NCBI RefSeq assembly: GCF_000189295.2
Contig: NC_016803.1
Coordinates: forward strand, 900,001 to 932,000
DNA length: 32,000 nt
Source: Pseudodesulfovibrio mercurii
GTDB taxonomy: Bacteria > Desulfobacterota > Desulfovibrionia > Desulfovibrionales > Desulfovibrionaceae
Direction: 5' to 3'
Shown here: positions 2,508 through 23,133 of the stretch, piece by piece
Layout of the letters: every line of letters begins with the position of its first letter
Numbering within the stretch: position 1 is the stretch's first letter
The notes under the pieces: model-generated
What the model was told of the DNA's origin: nothing
Seen by the model: the letters and a program-made list of their open reading frames with translations, nothing else
The model's database searches: none
Program-made: the position numbers and the translations under genes

Positions 2508-3482
2508 CTACAACTTCATGATCAGCGCGGTGGCCAACAGGTTGAACGTGGCCAGCGGCAGCAACCATTTCCAGTTGATGTTCAGCAGCTGGTCGAAGCG
2601 CACGCGGGGGAAGGTCCAGCGCGCCCAGATCATGAAGGACAACAGGGCGAAGGTCTTGAGGACCATCCACCACCATCCATCGATGCCGGGGAAGGGTCCG
2701 TGATAGCCGCCCAGGAACAGGACGGAACAGACCGAGCACATGACCACCATGTAGCCGTATTCGGCCAGGAAGAAGAGGCCGAAGCCCATGGCCGAATACT
2801 CGGTGTGGAAACCGGCGGTCAGTTCGGACTCGGCCTCGGCCAGGTCGAACGGCGCGCGGTTGGTCTCGCCGAACATGGCCACCAGGAAGATCAGGAAGGC
2901 CAGCGGTTGCTGGAAGATGTACCAGTTCCAGATGTACCCGGACTGCAGATTGGTGATCTCCGTCAGGCTCAGGGTGCCGGTCATGAACGAGATGGCCAGC
3001 ACGGTCAGGAGCAGCGGGATCTCATAGGCCACGGTCTGGGACACGGCACGAGCCGCGCCCAGGAGGCCCCATTTGTTATTGGAGGCCCAGCCGGCCAGGA
3101 TGACGGCCAGGGCGCTGAAGCTGGAGAAGGCCAGAATCAGCAGCAGGCCGAGGTTGACGTCCATGCCCGTCAGCACCGGGCCGTACGGGATGGGCATGTA
3201 GAGCAGCAGGACCGGGATCATGGACAGAAGCGGGGCCAGCCAGTACAGGACCGGGTCCGCGTTGTCCGGGGTCAGGAGCTGTTTGCCCATGAGCTTCAGG
3301 CCGTCGATGAGCGGCTGGAGCGCGCCGTGGGGACCGACCTCGAAGGGACCGGGCCGGCGCTGGATGTGGCCCGCGAACTTGCGTTCGCAGTAGACCCACA
3401 GCAGGGCGTTGATGCCCAGCCAGATCATGGCCGCAATGACCGCGATAACCAGGGGGATCAGGTGTTGTAAGAATGCGTTCAT
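2508..3482 (-). CDS. nuoH: NADH-quinone oxidoreductase subunit H
   Basis: Polytopic protein with CERKFAGHIQRRPGP, comparable to E. coli NuoH GERRLLGLFQNRYGP. Start is ATG at 3480-3482 (MNAFLQ...); the alternative GTG at 3489-3491 directly abuts the nuoD stop. Confidence 0.9.
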   Translation of the reverse strand: MNAFLQHLIPLVIAVIAAMIWLGINALLWVYCERKFAGHIQRRPGPFEVGPHGALQPLIDGLKLMGKQLLTPDNADPVLYWLAPLLSMIPVLLLYMPIPYGPVLTGMDVNLGLLLILAFSSFSALAVILAGWASNNKWGLLGAARAVSQTVAYEIPLLLTVLAISFMTGTLSLTEITNLQSGYIWNWYIFQQPLAFLIFLVAMFGETNRAPFDLAEAESELTAGFHTEYSAMGFGLFFLAEYGYMVVMCSVCSVLFLGGYHGPFPGIDGWWWMVLKTFALLSFMIWARWTFPRVRFDQLLNINWKWLLPLATFNLLATALIMKL

Positions 3483-14697: not shown

Positions 14698-17343
14698 CTA
14701 CTTCATGGCCGCCCGGCCCAGGTGGTGCACGTCGGCCGTGACCTCCTTCAGGTGACAGACGGCGCAGTTGCCCTGGGCGCCTATGGCCCGGATGTTGCCC
14801 TGGTATTGCAGGGGCGCGATGTTGTCGCGGTTCGCGCCGTAGCGGTTCACCGCCGGGTAGTTGGCGTGCGGACTGTTGTGGCAGGCGATGCACAGCATCC
14901 TGCCCGTCTTGTCCGGACTGTTGCGGTAGAGGGTGTCCCCGCCCGTGGTCCAGGTGTTGAACCCGAGGGAAGTCTTGGCGTCCGGCTTGACATTGGGGTC
15001 CACGTGGCAGGTCCGGCAGTCCGGCTCCTGCATCCACGGCAGGCGCGGGTTGATGGCGGCCAGGTTCTCGGCGGAGCGCGGGGTCAGGTGGGCCATGAGC
15101 CGACCGGCCCGCTGCTTGCCCTGCTCCTGTTCACGCTTGAGCAGAGACAAGGCGTGGTCCTCCAGGTAGCCGTGGCAGCGCACGCAGCCGATGTCCGCCT
15201 GGGCGTGCACCCCGCGCAGGCACTTGGTCGGGCCGTCGGGCCGGTTGGGATGGCAGTAGGCGCACGCCTCGGAGCCCCGGCCGGACAGGAAGTTGGCGTG
15301 GAAGCCGTGGATGGCCGCCGGCAGGTTCAGGAGGGCGGGGTTGCCCTCGGCCCCCAGGACCGGGTCCGGATGGCAGCTCTGGCAGAGCCGGGGCTTGCCT
15401 CCCTCGGCGGACGCGGCCAGCTCGGTGTTGCTCAGGCGGTCGTGGGACCGGAGCACGTTGCGTCCGGTCGTCCGCGAGATGCCCGCCAGGTCGTCCACCT
15501 TCCACGGGCCGCCGTGGCAGTTCCGGCAGCCCATCTCCGTGGACGTGGGGGCCACGGCCCTGGTCGCGGCCAGGAGCCTGCCCGTGCCCTTTTCGCGGGC
15601 CACCACCGTGAAGACGGGATAGGGGTTGAAGCCGCCGTCCGCCGGGTACGGCTCCACCGGGATGAGCTTGGCCTCGAAGCAGTTGAGCTCGCCGTTCTCG
15701 TGCATGGGCCCGATCAGGCCGCAACCGGCCAGCCCCACATTGTCCTCTGGCCGCGCCCCGAACAGGCACTCCGCGTGTTCCCAGAACAGGGACGCCCTGG
15801 CCGGTTCCTCGAAGCCCGGCTCCACGTGGTAGGAGAGCTCCACGCCCTCGGTGACCACCTCGGGCTTGTCGCCCCGCCGGATCAGCTGGGCGAAGAGGTC
15901 GTTGGCGGGCGGCAGCAGGACCCACTCGGCATAGCTGTCCGAGATGCAGTGCATGCCCAGGTTGTTCCAGGCGAGCAGGACGTACTCGTCCTTGTCGCGG
16001 TCGAAGGGCGGAATGTCCACGGTCAGTTGCGGAGGCGTCCAGGCCCGGTTGCCGGGCTTGCCGCCGTGCAGGCCGTCCACGATGTACGCGGCCAGGGCCA
16101 GCCGCTCCTGGTCCGTGCCCGCCCACGGCGGCATGACCGGGGTGATCCGGCCCATGCCCGCGATCTTGGCGTCCATGCCGACCAGCGGATACTGCGCGGT
16201 CAGGGGCAGGATGTCGTTCATGGGGCCGCCGATGGAGTGGCAGGAGGCGCATTGCAGCTGGAAGAGCACGCGCCCGGCCTCCAGGCGGTTGGCCTCGGTG
16301 ATCGGTCCGACCCTGGCCCACCCGGCCGAGGCCAGCAGGCCGGATTCGCGCAGCCCGTCCAGGTCGGCGGTCCGGATCTGGTTGGAATACATGTACCCGT
16401 GGATGACGTAGGGCTTGCGGGCGGCCTCGCGCAGGAACTCGAAGGTGCCGATGAACCCGAAGCCGAGCAGGAGGAGGATCAGGGACAGGCTGATGCGGGC
16501 CTCCCGGCGCAGGCGCAGGATCATGACCGAGCCCAGGACGAACAGCCCGGCGGCCAGGAACGGGATCAGCCGGTAGAAGGCGGTCATGCGCGCGGCCTTG
16601 ACCGTCAGCCGCTCCAGGGCCTCGGGCGGCAGGACCGAGAAGTACCACCAGCCGAAGCCCACGGCCAGGACCACCGGCACGATGGTCCAGCGGGCGCAGC
16701 AGCGGTAGACCAGCTCCCTTGTCTCCTCGTCCTCGATGCGGTGGGCGGTGAGGAAGCCGAACAGCCCGGCGATCATCAGGGCCATGGCCGTGCGGAAGCA
16801 CAGGCCCGGCCAGAAGGACGGGTTGAAGAAGCCCGCCCAGAAGCCGCCGCCCGTAAGCCACGCCCCCGGCGTGAGCATGAAGCCGATGATCCCGTTGATC
16901 ATGAACAGGGAGAGCCAGGCGAAGACGAAGTACAGCCAGCCGATGATCAGATGGCTGCGCCGGTCCATGCGGTCGAACCGGTAATGGTAGATGAGCAGGG
17001 AGACGATCTCGGCCAGGAAGAAGACCCACTCCGTGGCCCAGGCGAAGACGAAGGTGTGGATCAGCGTGGACGTGGCCTGTGGCGCGATGACCGAGATGGT
17101 GATCCAGATGCCCACGCCGGTCATGCCGCCGAAGACCATGGTCAGGAGCAGGAAAAAGCGCGTGTGCCGCTTGACGTACTCCAACAGCGGCGCGGAGCGG
17201 AGCTTCGCGGCCAGGGTCTCGAACACGGGCAGGAACAGCCCGCCGCCCACGGCGAAGTGGGCCACGAACACGTGCACCACCGCCACCAGGGCGATGAAGA
17301 AGCCGCCGCCGAAGGTCGTCAGTTCCCAGATGGGGTATTGCAT
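14698..17343 (-). CDS. Fusion protein (881 aa): cytochrome bd subunit I (CydA)-like 8-TM domain + monohaem class-I-like cytochrome c domain + haem-free module + heptahaem c domain
   Basis: Start is ATG 17341-17343 ([14 protein letters not shown]...), overlapping the upstream stop (ATGACTAG). Residues 1-310 form about 8 TM helices with CydA-like blocks: VAHFAVGGG in TM1, [15 protein letters not shown]...RFDRM...[19 protein letters not shown]. There are eight CxxCH motifs at residues 365, 606, 664, 694, 720, 776, 818 and 860. The track ORF extension to 18105 is rejected. Confidence 0.85.
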
Positions 17344-20329: not shown

Positions 20330-20980
20330 CTAGAGGGCGTGGTGGAAATCGACCACGTGCTGGAGGGCGTCGCCCAGGGGGTCGAAGGTGTCGGCAAAGG
20401 AGCAGAACGACAGGTCGGTCAGGGGCGCGCAGTGCTCCGCGCCGAACAGGGCGGGCACGTATCCGGCCTCGTCGGTGTGGTGCGGGAACACCTCGGGTCC
20501 GTCGGAGAACAGCTCGAAATAGGTCAGGATGTCGGCCCCGTGGTCCGCGTGCGCGCCATGGGCCTGGTCCAGGGCCGAATGCTCGTCCGCTCCGGACGGC
20601 ACGTCGCCCTTGGAGTCCACGTGGTCGCGGAACTCCCCGCTCATGGACCGGTCCGTGAGCGGTCCGGCCGCCGTCTCCATGTTCATGGCCGCGTCGCCGA
20701 AGGCGAACAGGTAGACGTCGCCCGGCACCTCCTCGCCGCCGTGCAGCTCGAACATGGGCAACGCCCCGTCCTGGGCCATGGACAGGTAATCCTTGATGAC
20801 CACCACGCCGCCATGCTCGCCGGTCAGGACCAAGTCGTTGCCCTGGGCCGAAAACACGACCTCGGACACGTAAAAACCGAATTTGACGGGAACGTCGGGA
20901 GAAAGCGTGTACTCGGCGACTTTGCCGGGCTCGGGAAGATCCACCAGCATGGACGTGTGAGTGGGAGCGGATTCCGCCAC
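20330..20980 (-). CDS. Hypothetical acidic, His/Asp-rich protein (~216 aa) with an N-terminal GNDLVL...VVVIKDYL module
   Basis: Coding-like composition, with its own terminator. GTG at 20978-20980 is preceded by a perfect AGGAGG and a 5-nt spacer. Alternative starts are GTG 21010 (track) and ATG 20950, neither with an SD. No signal peptide is seen. Confidence 0.55.
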   Translation of the reverse strand: MAESAPTHTSMLVDLPEPGKVAEYTLSPDVPVKFGFYVSEVVFSAQGNDLVLTGEHGGVVVIKDYLSMAQDGALPMFELHGGEEVPGDVYLFAFGDAAMNMETAAGPLTDRSMSGEFRDHVDSKGDVPSGADEHSALDQAHGAHADHGADILTYFELFSDGPEVFPHHTDEAGYVPALFGAEHCAPLTDLSFCSFADTFDPLGDALQHVVDFHHAL

Positions 20981-21142
20981 GATAGCCTCCTGGGGATAAG
21001 GGGTCGGCACCGACCATGATGTGCCGTTCGCTGCACATCATTAACACAACTAAACAATACTGTCAAAAGCAGTTTAATTCCGCATGTTACCCTGTGGAAA
21101 ACTCGAAAAACACGTCCGATTGAGCACGAAAGGAGCCATTTG

Positions 21143-21991
21143 GTGAAGAAACGGTGTAACCGGTTGACGGCCAACCCCGTTTATCGGTTATATGATCTGA
21201 CCATGCGAATCTATACCATTTTCCATTTTGCGGCAAGTCTCCGCCTCCCCTGGCGGCTTCCGGCCTTCCTGGCCCTGTGGTTTCTCCTGCTGACCGTGCC
21301 GGTCCGGGCCGACGATCCCGGACAGATGATCGCGCCCTGCCTCGCCTGTCACACGGCGGAACGCATCTGCCGGAACGTGGACAGCGGCGACGCGTTCTGG
21401 ACCGACACGGTCAAGCGCATGATCGCCAAGGGAGCGCACGTGGGCCCGGATCAGGTCCCCGGCCTGGTCGCCCTCCTGGCCAACCCCGACCACGCCGAGG
21501 TCCGCAGGCTGCTGGACTGCCCGGCTCCGGGCAGCCCCGAGACGGCGGCCGCCGTCCCCACCGCCGTGATCCTGGGCCATCCCCTGCTCATGATCCTGGT
21601 CCTGCTCCTGGGGCTGTGGGTGGCCTGGCAGGGCGTGAACCGCGCCCGCTTCACCCTGCTCGGGCAAAAGGTCGCCTTCAACTGGAAGGGACACACCCGC
21701 TACGGGCTGGTGGTCATGGCCCTGTGGTTCGTCGGGGCCGTGGGCGGGTCCATCGTGACCGACATGCTCCAGGGCATCCCCGACGCCTACGAACTGCACG
21801 GGACCATGGCCAAGATCATGCTCGCGCTCATCGTCTTCGGCGCGGCCACCGGGCTGTACATGGACCGCAGAAAGGCGAAGCGCTCGATCATGCCCGTGCT
21901 GCACGGCGCGGCCAACATGCTCCTCCTGCTCCTGGCCCTGGGACAGCTCGTCACGGGCCTCGTCATCCTCGGCCGACTGTTCGCGTCCTAG
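21143..21991 (+). CDS. Signal peptide + monohaem cytochrome c domain fused to a 4-TM domain with one His per helix (DUF4079 / cytochrome b561-like)
   Basis: AAAGGAG SD (21129-21135) lies 7 nt before GTG 21143; alternatives are TTG 21140 and ATG 21203. The hydrophobic h-region ends in VRA-DD. CLACH is at 21338-21352, with a distal Met candidate in VKRMIAKGA. Four TM helices follow, each opening with a His: LGHPLLM, KGHTRYG, ELHGTMA, VLHGAAN. Confidence 0.7.
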   Translation: MKKRCNRLTANPVYRLYDLTMRIYTIFHFAASLRLPWRLPAFLALWFLLLTVPVRADDPGQMIAPCLACHTAERICRNVDSGDAFWTDTVKRMIAKGAHVGPDQVPGLVALLANPDHAEVRRLLDCPAPGSPETAAAVPTAVILGHPLLMILVLLLGLWVAWQGVNRARFTLLGQKVAFNWKGHTRYGLVVMALWFVGAVGGSIVTDMLQGIPDAYELHGTMAKIMLALIVFGAATGLYMDRRKAKRSIMPVLHGAANMLLLLLALGQLVTGLVILGRLFAS

Positions 21992-22015: not shown

Positions 22016-22042
22016 GGCGGGGCTTGCAACCCCGCCTTTTTT
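22016..22042 (+). terminator. Intrinsic terminator after the c/b fusion gene
   Basis: Stem ggcgggg/ccccgcc (22016-22022 / 22030-22036) with a 7-nt loop, then TTTTTT (22037-22042). Confidence 0.6.
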
Positions 22043-22062
22043 ATGTCCATTATCCGGCCACC

Positions 22063-23133
22063 ATGACCGTATTCAACGACAACGCTGTGGGCGCGCTGGA
22101 ATTCACCGTGACCTGGGAATCGGACGGCGAGCGCCATGAGGAATGGTTTCTGGGCCGCAAGGTCAACCCGGTGAACGACATCTTCCCGACCGGTATGCGC
22201 GAGGCCCTGGAAGGCAAGGAGGCCGGGGAATCCGTGGTCTTCACCTACGAGCCGCGCCTGTGCATCCCCCGGCGCAAGGAGAGCCTGGTCCTGCGCCTGG
22301 ACCGCGACCGGCTGCGGCGCAAGACCGTGCGGGGCGAGCCGATCCTGCCGCGTGTGGGCCGGTTCTATCCCCAGGGACACATCGACGGCCTGCTGGACAT
22401 CTACCCGGACACCCTGACCCCGTTCCGGCTGGTGGACCTGGACAACGAGACCTTCACGGCGGACCGCAACCACCCCCTGGCCGACGTGCCGGTGACCATC
22501 GCGGCCAAGATCCAGTATCTGGAGGAGCGCGACACCGGGACCTACGGCTCCCTGACCCACTGGCGCGAGGCCGTCTGCGACTGGGGGCCGGGCATGCAGG
22601 CCATGCTCCACGGCGAGCCGCCGGACTTCTTTCACCCCGCCTTCTTCGACCGCTTTGCCGACCTGGACGAGGACTTCCGCCCGCCCAGGCCCGATGCGGC
22701 CGCCCTGCGCAACTACCAGTCCATCCTCGGACGGTTCGTGGAACCAGGCATGCGCCTGCTGGACCTCTCCCCGGACTCCGAGCGGCCCACCGGGCAATAC
22801 GACGGCGCGGCCTGCCTGGGCGCCCTGGAATACATGGACCGGCCTGTGGACATCCTGCGCTACGTGGCCTACTTCCTGCCGCCCGGCGCTCCGGTGGTCC
22901 TGGCCTTCTCCGAATCCTTCGACCCGGACCGGGCCATCCGGGGATGGCGGGAGCTCCTGCCCTTCGAACGCATGGGGCTGGCCCTGGAATACCTGCGCAT
23001 GGCCGGATTCACCCGGGACCTGGGGACCGTCTCCGTGCGCAACGACTGGCGCGACCGCGACGACCCCCGGTTCCTGGAGACCAAGGGCGTCAGCGACACC
23101 CTGTTCGTGGCCTACGGGCGCAAGCCGGAATAG
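22063..23133 (+). CDS. Fusion protein: SlyD/FKBP-like N-terminal domain + class-I-methyltransferase-like C-terminal domain lacking the Gly-rich SAM motif
   Basis: 356 aa from ATG 22063. The N-terminal half parallels SlyD block by block: PTGMREALEGKEAGESVVFTY vs LISGLETALEGHEVGDKFDV, and DRNHPLADVPVTIAAKIQYLEERD vs GNHMLAGQNLKFNVEVVAIREATEEE. The C-terminal half has MRLLDLSPDS where MTases carry vLDlGcGtG. The track ORF extension to 21277 overlaps the previous gene and is rejected. Confidence 0.6.
   Translation: MTVFNDNAVGALEFTVTWESDGERHEEWFLGRKVNPVNDIFPTGMREALEGKEAGESVVFTYEPRLCIPRRKESLVLRLDRDRLRRKTVRGEPILPRVGRFYPQGHIDGLLDIYPDTLTPFRLVDLDNETFTADRNHPLADVPVTIAAKIQYLEERDTGTYGSLTHWREAVCDWGPGMQAMLHGEPPDFFHPAFFDRFADLDEDFRPPRPDAAALRNYQSILGRFVEPGMRLLDLSPDSERPTGQYDGAACLGALEYMDRPVDILRYVAYFLPPGAPVVLAFSESFDPDRAIRGWRELLPFERMGLALEYLRMAGFTRDLGTVSVRNDWRDRDDPRFLETKGVSDTLFVAYGRKPE

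Follow-up and report, generated by a model that had tools for sequence, protein, structure and literature searches.

A cytochrome c/DUF4079 fusion protein of Pseudodesulfovibrio mercurii as a candidate three-haem transmembrane electron-transfer protein

Introduction

Fusions between a periplasmic haem domain and a di-haem b membrane anchor are already known, and so are transmembrane electron wires of the cytochrome b561 type. In CYBDOM proteins, a DOMON haem domain is fused to b561; the substrate site of b561 is basic, and ascorbate docks there. The bacterial c-b fusions of the CbcL type are quinone-reactive, and CbcL itself carries many haems c. The four-helix di-haem b proteins CybB and FdnI bind quinones at the edge of their bundle and, to our knowledge, the bacterial di-haem b anchors that have been characterised react with quinones almost without exception. 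Another small membrane protein, CtaM, of the DUF420 family, is needed for haem-copper oxidase activity. In sulfate reducers, the electron routes across the inner membrane are limited in number and consist of heavily studied large complexes (for instance Qrc, Tmc, Hmc and Dsr). Finally, DUF4079 is an uncharacterised protein family that occurs in cyanobacteria and plants as well.

In this study, we analysed a gene of the sulfate reducer Pseudodesulfovibrio mercurii in which a cytochrome c is joined to an anchor of the DUF4079 type. All coordinates below refer to the window, i.e. the whole stretch of DNA that was analysed (32,000 nucleotides of contig NC_016803.1, from position 900,001 to position 932,000). 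We consider that the product is a three-haem, single-polypeptide transmembrane electron-transfer protein (c-b-b), with a probability of roughly 0.6. It would resemble CYBDOM proteins in joining an extracytoplasmic haem domain to a b561-type di-haem core, which gives a three-haem transmembrane chain. Its outer domain, however, is an N-terminal class I haem c rather than a DOMON haem b, and the outer domains of the two are analogous, not homologous. As in CbcL, one protein unites a periplasmic haem c with a putative membrane di-haem b, and as in CybB and FdnI (PF01292), the anchor has four helices and would hold two haems. It differs from all three by its b family, PF01292 being weakly matched by 4 of the 82 relatives examined. 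What is new is not the principle of such a fusion; it is an anchor from an uncharacterised family, reduced to four helices, and the partners that go with it. A literature search returned no paper characterising DUF4079, the c/DUF4079 fusion or its pairing with P460 proteins, nor any biochemistry on haem b in a DUF4079 protein. This agrees with the first-pass annotation of this DNA, made from the sequence, whose author knew of no characterised member of such a fusion.

Results

Extent of the fusion gene and flanking signals

The fusion gene (P0001) lies on the forward strand at 21203..21991 and comprises 262 codons plus the stop codon. In the first-pass annotation it had been started at a GTG at 21143, which is not the conserved start: in an alignment of homologues, all of them begin at the Met matching the ATG at 21203, 60 nt further in, and the in-frame extension 5' of this ATG is interrupted by stop codons in two orthologous loci (L001 and L016). 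Given these upstream stops and the shared Met, the gene was taken as 21203-21991. The longer open reading frame, starting at 21140/21143 with an AGGAG in front, was ruled out, since the corresponding extensions of orthologues carry stop codons. The closest named relatives of the protein are found in Pseudodesulfovibrio, with 72-77% identity, and databases label it either 'DUF4079 family protein' or 'cytochrome c domain-containing protein'.

An AT-rich spacer of 190 nt separates the gene from a divergent upstream gene. It contains a promoter-like arrangement on the forward strand (TTGACG, 19 nt, TATATG; 21164..21194), which ends 8 nt before the ATG at 21203 and recurs in four more loci of the Pseudodesulfovibrio type (L001, L012, L015 and L016); a scan with promoter consensus sequences did not call this element. 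We looked for a Shine-Dalgarno sequence before the same ATG and none is present. With a promoter-like element so close to the start codon and no Shine-Dalgarno sequence, the mRNA may be leaderless. In the Desulfomicrobiaceae orthologues, AAAGGAGG precedes the ATG instead. Straight after the stop codon, an intrinsic terminator is found on the same strand (22016..22043; 7 G-C pairs, then a run of T), and the gene looks monocistronic, forming a single-gene transcription unit.

In the divergent intergenic region we also observed the motif TTACCCTGTGGAAAAC (21087-21102), about 100 nt 5' of the ATG, which is kept in 5 out of the 5 Pseudodesulfovibrio-type loci compared and may be the site of a regulator.

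An exported monohaem cytochrome c domain

Residues 1-36 (21203..21310, forward strand) read as a signal peptide: its n-region has three Arg, its h-region is LPAFLALWFLLLTVPV, and a probable cleavage site lies at VRA-DD. It is of the Sec type and has no twin-Arg motif, and the A-x-A before (A)D is kept in homologues. Behind it, residues 37-110 (21311..21532, forward strand) were assigned to a periplasmic monohaem class I-like cytochrome c domain, on the basis of SorB-like matches and invariant motifs. The sole CxxCH of the protein is CLACH (residues 46-50, 21338-21352, forward strand), and it is invariant. Met73 (21419-21421, forward strand), in VKRMIAKGA, is invariant in the fusions and is the probable sixth ligand of haem c, because the other candidate, His79, is conserved in close relatives only. 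Signal peptide, CLACH and downstream Met, all three already pointed out in the first reading of this DNA, are thus present in the translated frame, and one CxxCH with a distal Met behind a signal peptide is, by sequence, the signature of an exported class I c-type cytochrome. Among 10 representatives of the fusion, down to 33% identity, C46, C49, H50, R54, C56, M73 and C106 are invariant.

The closest described relative of this domain is SorB, with which it shares the layout of a small His/Met monohaem c and the alignment of CxxCH, FW and (K/R)MI. The match to the NCBIfam SorB model (NF052246) has a score of 26.7 bits (E = 4.3e-6), far under the equivalog cut-off of 93 bits, and that to the SorB chain of the PDB (2blf_B) has an E-value of 0.78, with CxxCH, FW and the Met of KMI in register. 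The domain further differs from SorB in having no SorA partner and in carrying two extra invariant Cys. It was modelled by AF2 with a pLDDT of 86-94, and belongs to a roughly 70-aa type of unit with a wide distribution, found elsewhere also in tandem repeats.

The two extra Cys are Cys56, in the sequence RIC, and Cys106, just before the linker. Both are common to stand-alone cytochromes of about 95 aa, which stop right behind the second Cys; this sharing suggests that Cys56 and Cys106 may form a disulphide, and that the c domain may originate from a small soluble cytochrome. The linker that follows (residues 111-119, 21533..21559, forward strand) is rich in Pro and Ala and poorly conserved, and forms the block of lowest pLDDT in the mature protein (68). 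A split form, in which a gene for a small two-Cys cytochrome would sit beside a gene for an unfused anchor, was not found for the three stand-alone cytochromes checked (P0164, P0155 and P0134), whose neighbours are CutA1, HhH-GPD or other genes, none of them encoding DUF4079. On two unrelated contigs, stand-alone cytochromes c that share the CxxCH...RIC...C arrangement of the fused domain (about 100 aa) are encoded directly upstream of CutA1 (L037, 1109-1800; L039, 3180-3826).

A four-helix anchor with four conserved histidines

Residues 120-262 (21560..21988, forward strand) make up a four-helix membrane domain, b561-core-like and of the DUF4079 type, delimited by its PF13301 match, the AF2 model and the conservation of its His. 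With an alignment of 82 sequences, AF2 placed helices at residues 120-153, 161-190, 197-222 and 229-261; the pLDDT was 85 for the whole fusion protein, and the anchor modelled alone again gave four helices, with a pLDDT of 93.8 and a pTM of 0.87. Together with hydropathy, this supports the four transmembrane helices initially proposed, each having a His near its start. These putative haem b ligands, all conserved and all on the forward strand, are His126 in GHPLLM (21578-21580), His164 in KGHTRYG (21692-21694), His199 in ELHGTMA (21797-21799) and His234 in VLHGAAN (21902-21904). The predicted cytoplasmic loops contain 4 and 5 Lys or Arg, and the periplasmic loop contains 3 Asp or Glu and no Lys or Arg. 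With the c domain outside, these charges fit the positive-inside rule and the predicted sidedness, i.e. His126 and His199 outside, His164 and His234 inside.

The first-pass annotation had named two ways in which this picture could fail, namely that the four His would not be conserved in homologues, or that they would not face a common cavity. On the first point, the four residues are invariant among 15 close homologues and, together with P127, among the 10 representatives of the fusion, whose identity goes down to 33%; more broadly, each of them is found in 104 to 106 of 107 DUF4079-like representatives (at least 97%), a pattern far beyond chance. For the second point, a sequence proxy was used: conservation moments were calculated at 100 degrees per residue and compared with those obtained after shuffling. 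Conservation was one-sided in all four helices, with 0.05-0.9% of the shuffles reaching the observed moment (p = 0.0005-0.009), and each His was 0-13 degrees off the centre of the conserved face of its helix. Moreover, a same pattern is repeated in every helix, namely His (0), +4, +14 and Gly (+18), the latter being G144, G182, G217 and G252. By this proxy, the four His would face a common cavity, each on a conserved face with a Gly at +18. In each helix, the His may ligate one haem and the Gly, about five turns off, may make room for the other, as would be required of a two-haem bundle of four helices. In the cytoplasmic loops, for their part, conservation is strong at basic and aromatic positions (R147, F159, W161, K162 and the motif YMDRxKxxR).

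The DUF4079 family and its relation to cytochrome b561

A resemblance to DUF4079 had been put forward, and it holds at the curated cut-off: PF13301 gives 34.4 bits for a gathering score of 31.4, and residues 124-257 cover positions 3-139 of the 141 of the profile. Sub-threshold Pfam matches were also obtained with DUF420, Cytochrom_B561 and PepSY_TM, which we take to form, with DUF4079, one Pfam clan of two-haem cytochromes. PF01292 (prokaryotic b561, or CybB) gave no match for the fusion protein at E ≤ 10. A word-indexed homology search returned close relatives only, and the deeper set comes from HMMER, which, run exhaustively against 1.84 billion representatives, yielded 201 relatives. About ten clusters at 50% identity have the c + anchor fusion, most of the others consist of the anchor by itself (about 140 aa), and some match the c domain alone. 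When 82 relatives were scanned, DUF4079 was matched by 76, DUF420 by 44, Cytochrom_B561 by 35 (best E = 2.6e-7) and PF01292 by 4, the matches to the last three families being weak, though consistent for Cytochrom_B561. Compared with DUF4079 as a whole, which mostly consists of stand-alone proteins of about 140 aa, the fusion protein adds a cytochrome c, and its subfamily is borderline and divergent, several close unfused relatives scoring 20-29 bits.

The first reading had also compared the anchor with cytochrome b561. As in b561 and Dcytb (PF03188; PDB 4o6y and 5zle), four His are carried by four consecutive transmembrane helices with a similar spacing (38/35/35 in the fusion protein, 36/34/39 in Dcytb), and the first helix has an HPxLM opening, the GHPLLM of the fusion protein recalling the WHPVLM of Dcytb. 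The register of the two proteins could be set through the B561 profile. Residues 49-185 of Dcytb (the sequence supplied was identical to PDB 5zle_A) cover this profile one to one, which puts its haem ligand His86 at position 38, and the match of the fusion protein opens precisely at His164, at this same position 38. Helices TM1-4 of the fusion protein therefore correspond to TM2-5 of b561, with the same sidedness. The likeness is thus borne out in spacing, sidedness and register, but not in profile score, since Cytochrom_B561 (PF03188) gives 15.0 bits (E = 0.03), under its gathering score of 23. The fusion protein also differs from b561 and Dcytb in being bacterial, in having an exported cytochrome c, in that no ascorbate system is expected, and in having only four helices, i.e. 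the TM2-5 core, where PF03188 has six.

Other profile and structure comparisons lent no further support. An hhalign comparison of the anchor alignment with Dcytb and Arabidopsis b561 gave a probability of 35%, with His aligned on His and a register shifted by one helix, a shift that we take as a sign of the internal pseudo-symmetry of the bundle. The anchor profile, run against PDB chain sequences, retrieved no b561 and gave chance matches to rhodopsin and MCU, and the whole fusion protein retrieved SorB alone, by the match reported above. With Foldseek, neither the full nor the anchor-only model gave anything in the PDB at E ≤ 0.001. Structures of b561 and Dcytb came out with a TM-score of 0.59-0.60 on the query and an E-value of about 2, among generic or designed four-helix bundles; for 4o6y_B, the TM-score was 0.60 at 24% identity (E = 1.9), and designed bundles ranked above it. 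The designed di-haem protein 4D2 was among these non-significant helical-bundle matches.

Gene neighbourhoods and periplasmic haem c partners

In Pseudodesulfovibrio, the gene order is DASS transporter, protein of 222-226 aa, fusion gene, protein of about 355 aa. In the window, the two flanking genes encode an acidic, His-rich protein of 226 aa (20330-21010, reverse strand) and a protein of 354 aa (22063-23133, forward strand), neither having a Pfam match. Both are syntenic with the fusion gene in Pseudodesulfovibrio-type loci, but not in Desulfomicrobiaceae, where the orthologue is flanked by proVWX-like genes and a DEAD-box helicase gene. Because this order is not shared by Desulfomicrobiaceae, synteny was dropped as a functional clue, and the gene context yields no pathway.

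Another membrane protein of the c-b fusion type, of about 881 aa, is encoded 3 kb from the fusion gene (14698-17343, reverse strand, in a reading frame open to 18105). Its N-terminal membrane domain resembles subunit I of cytochrome bd (Pfam Cyt_bd_oxida_I, E of about 2e-7), and is followed by a cytochrome c domain of the cbb3 type and by seven more CxxCH, in a region with c7-, c3- and MtrC-like matches. Its gene is present in one orthologous locus (L012) and absent from another (L015).

We also examined 25 loci where a relative of the anchor is encoded unfused (35-47% identity to the anchor of the fusion protein), the metagenome loci having been gathered with a narrower anchor alignment. In 14 of them, the gene immediately upstream, in the same orientation, codes for a secreted monohaem protein of the Cytochrome_P460 family; the count is 6 of 9 for the loci from genomes and 8 of 16 for those from metagenomes, several of the remaining loci being too short upstream. 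The P460-family partner has about 160 aa and a C-terminal CxxCH, and is matched by PF16694 with 42.7 bits (cut-off 27). These P460 + DUF4079-like cassettes (loci L003, L005, L007, L009, L010, L011, L017, L018, L019, L022, L025, L027, L028 and L030) are found in Desulfobacterales, Thermodesulfobacteriota, Gammaproteobacteria metagenome-assembled genomes and metagenomes, and a literature search returned no report of such a cassette. When the anchors were arranged in a neighbour-joining tree, those of the fused proteins grouped as one clade, placed beside the P460-linked ones. This clade of anchors is recurrently combined with a periplasmic haem c, either in cis or in an operon, and the recurrent pairing, taken with the fusion itself, supports an exchange of electrons between the anchor and a periplasmic haem.

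Two other contexts were observed for unfused genes. In three loci (L029, L032 and L033), the DUF4079-like gene (around 2990-3417) lies about 0.9 kb downstream of genes for a caa3-type oxidase (COX3, COX4_pro and COX2 with cytochrome c domains), which recalls the link between DUF420/CtaM and oxidases. In L008 (775-1756), the DUF4079-like gene overlaps, as judged by eye, the start of a downstream MsrB-like gene with a signal peptide, a layout reminiscent of MsrQ/MsrP.

Discussion

From what is observed here, namely the domain architecture, the family membership, the topology signals, and the conservation and helical phase of the ligands, we infer how haem b could be bound, how the His could be paired, where electrons could flow and with which partners. 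The N-terminal domain would be exported by Sec and gain one covalent haem c (His50/Met73) in the periplasm. A short flexible linker would tie it to the four-helix bundle, which is probably the counterpart, in bacteria, of helices 2-5 of the eukaryotic cytochrome b561. This bundle would hold two bis-His haems b, one bound by His126 and His199 on the periplasmic side, the other by His164 and His234 on the cytoplasmic side. With haem c, outer haem b and inner haem b in one chain, electrons could pass across the membrane, running between c, b(outer) and b(inner) in either direction, so that periplasmic c-type redox proteins would be linked to the inner membrane face.

What the inner haem exchanges electrons with is a distinct question. 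The first-pass annotation had supposed a chain working without a quinone site; this is an assumption, since the four-helix anchors of CybB and FdnI bind quinones. Our own preference, a slight and tentative one falling short of even odds, is an exchange with the menaquinone pool at the edge of the bundle. We find it somewhat doubtful that the inner haem is instead served by a soluble anionic donor docking on the conserved basic loops of the cytoplasmic side, such that a cytoplasmic molecule or protein would directly reduce or oxidise the inner haem b, as in ascorbate-dependent b561 and CYBDOM proteins. Such a quinone-independent wire would suit the fact that the nearest family is the ascorbate-type eukaryotic b561 (35 of 82 relatives, versus 4 of 82 for PF01292), and the basic and aromatic cytoplasmic loops do recall the b561 substrate site. 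Yet basic loops are expected anyway on this side of the membrane, by the positive-inside rule, no gene for a candidate cytoplasmic donor is linked to the fusion gene in the window or in the orthologous loci, and the bacterial di-haem b anchors that we know to be characterised nearly all react with quinones.

Two further explanations do without any electron conduit. The weak DUF420 matches of 44 of the 82 relatives, and the three unfused relatives encoded just 3' of COX3, COX4 and COX2-cytochrome c genes, could suggest an assembly or haem-handling factor similar to CtaM, a distant relative from the DUF420 family; the His of such a factor would bind haem transiently. We hold this to be very improbable for the fusion protein, as a chaperone role hardly accounts for the covalently fused electron-transfer cytochrome c or for the P460-family partner that recurs, and as no oxidase genes are found near it in the window or the orthologous loci. 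Even less credit goes to an anchor with a single haem b, or with a metal ion instead, that would mainly hold the c domain at the membrane, with no transmembrane flow. Structural searches, it is true, could not tell the anchor from a generic four-helix bundle, but the four His are equally conserved on both faces of the membrane, each with its conserved Gly face, none of which a plain anchor needs, and the unfused members of the family have no tethered domain to hold. We thus retain the c-b-b protein as the main reading.

If this c-b-b reading is true, no simpler natural c-b-b wire than this single polypeptide of 26 kDa would be known, and such a minimal module would be attractive for mechanistic as well as synthetic-biology work. 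It assigns a concrete and testable function to DUF4079. Should the protein be a small menaquinol:cytochrome c oxidoreductase instead, it would still represent a new type of anchor, although a conceptually ordinary one. The pairing of P460-family and DUF4079-like genes, for its part, offers the P460/c'-beta-type cytochromes of anaerobes a possible redox partner. A wider reading, which we regard as rather unlikely, is that DUF4079-type proteins are the bacterial, quinone-independent counterpart of b561 and CYBDOM proteins, dedicated two-haem wires that would directly feed or drain a periplasmic haem c from a cytoplasmic reductant, with the periplasmic module either fused, as here, or, as in the sister clade, encoded apart in the form of a P460-family enzyme. 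If true, the P460/c'-beta-type proteins of those organisms would have their missing redox partner identified, and DUF4079-type proteins would constitute an unrecognised electron route of the inner membrane in sulfate reducers and other anaerobes.
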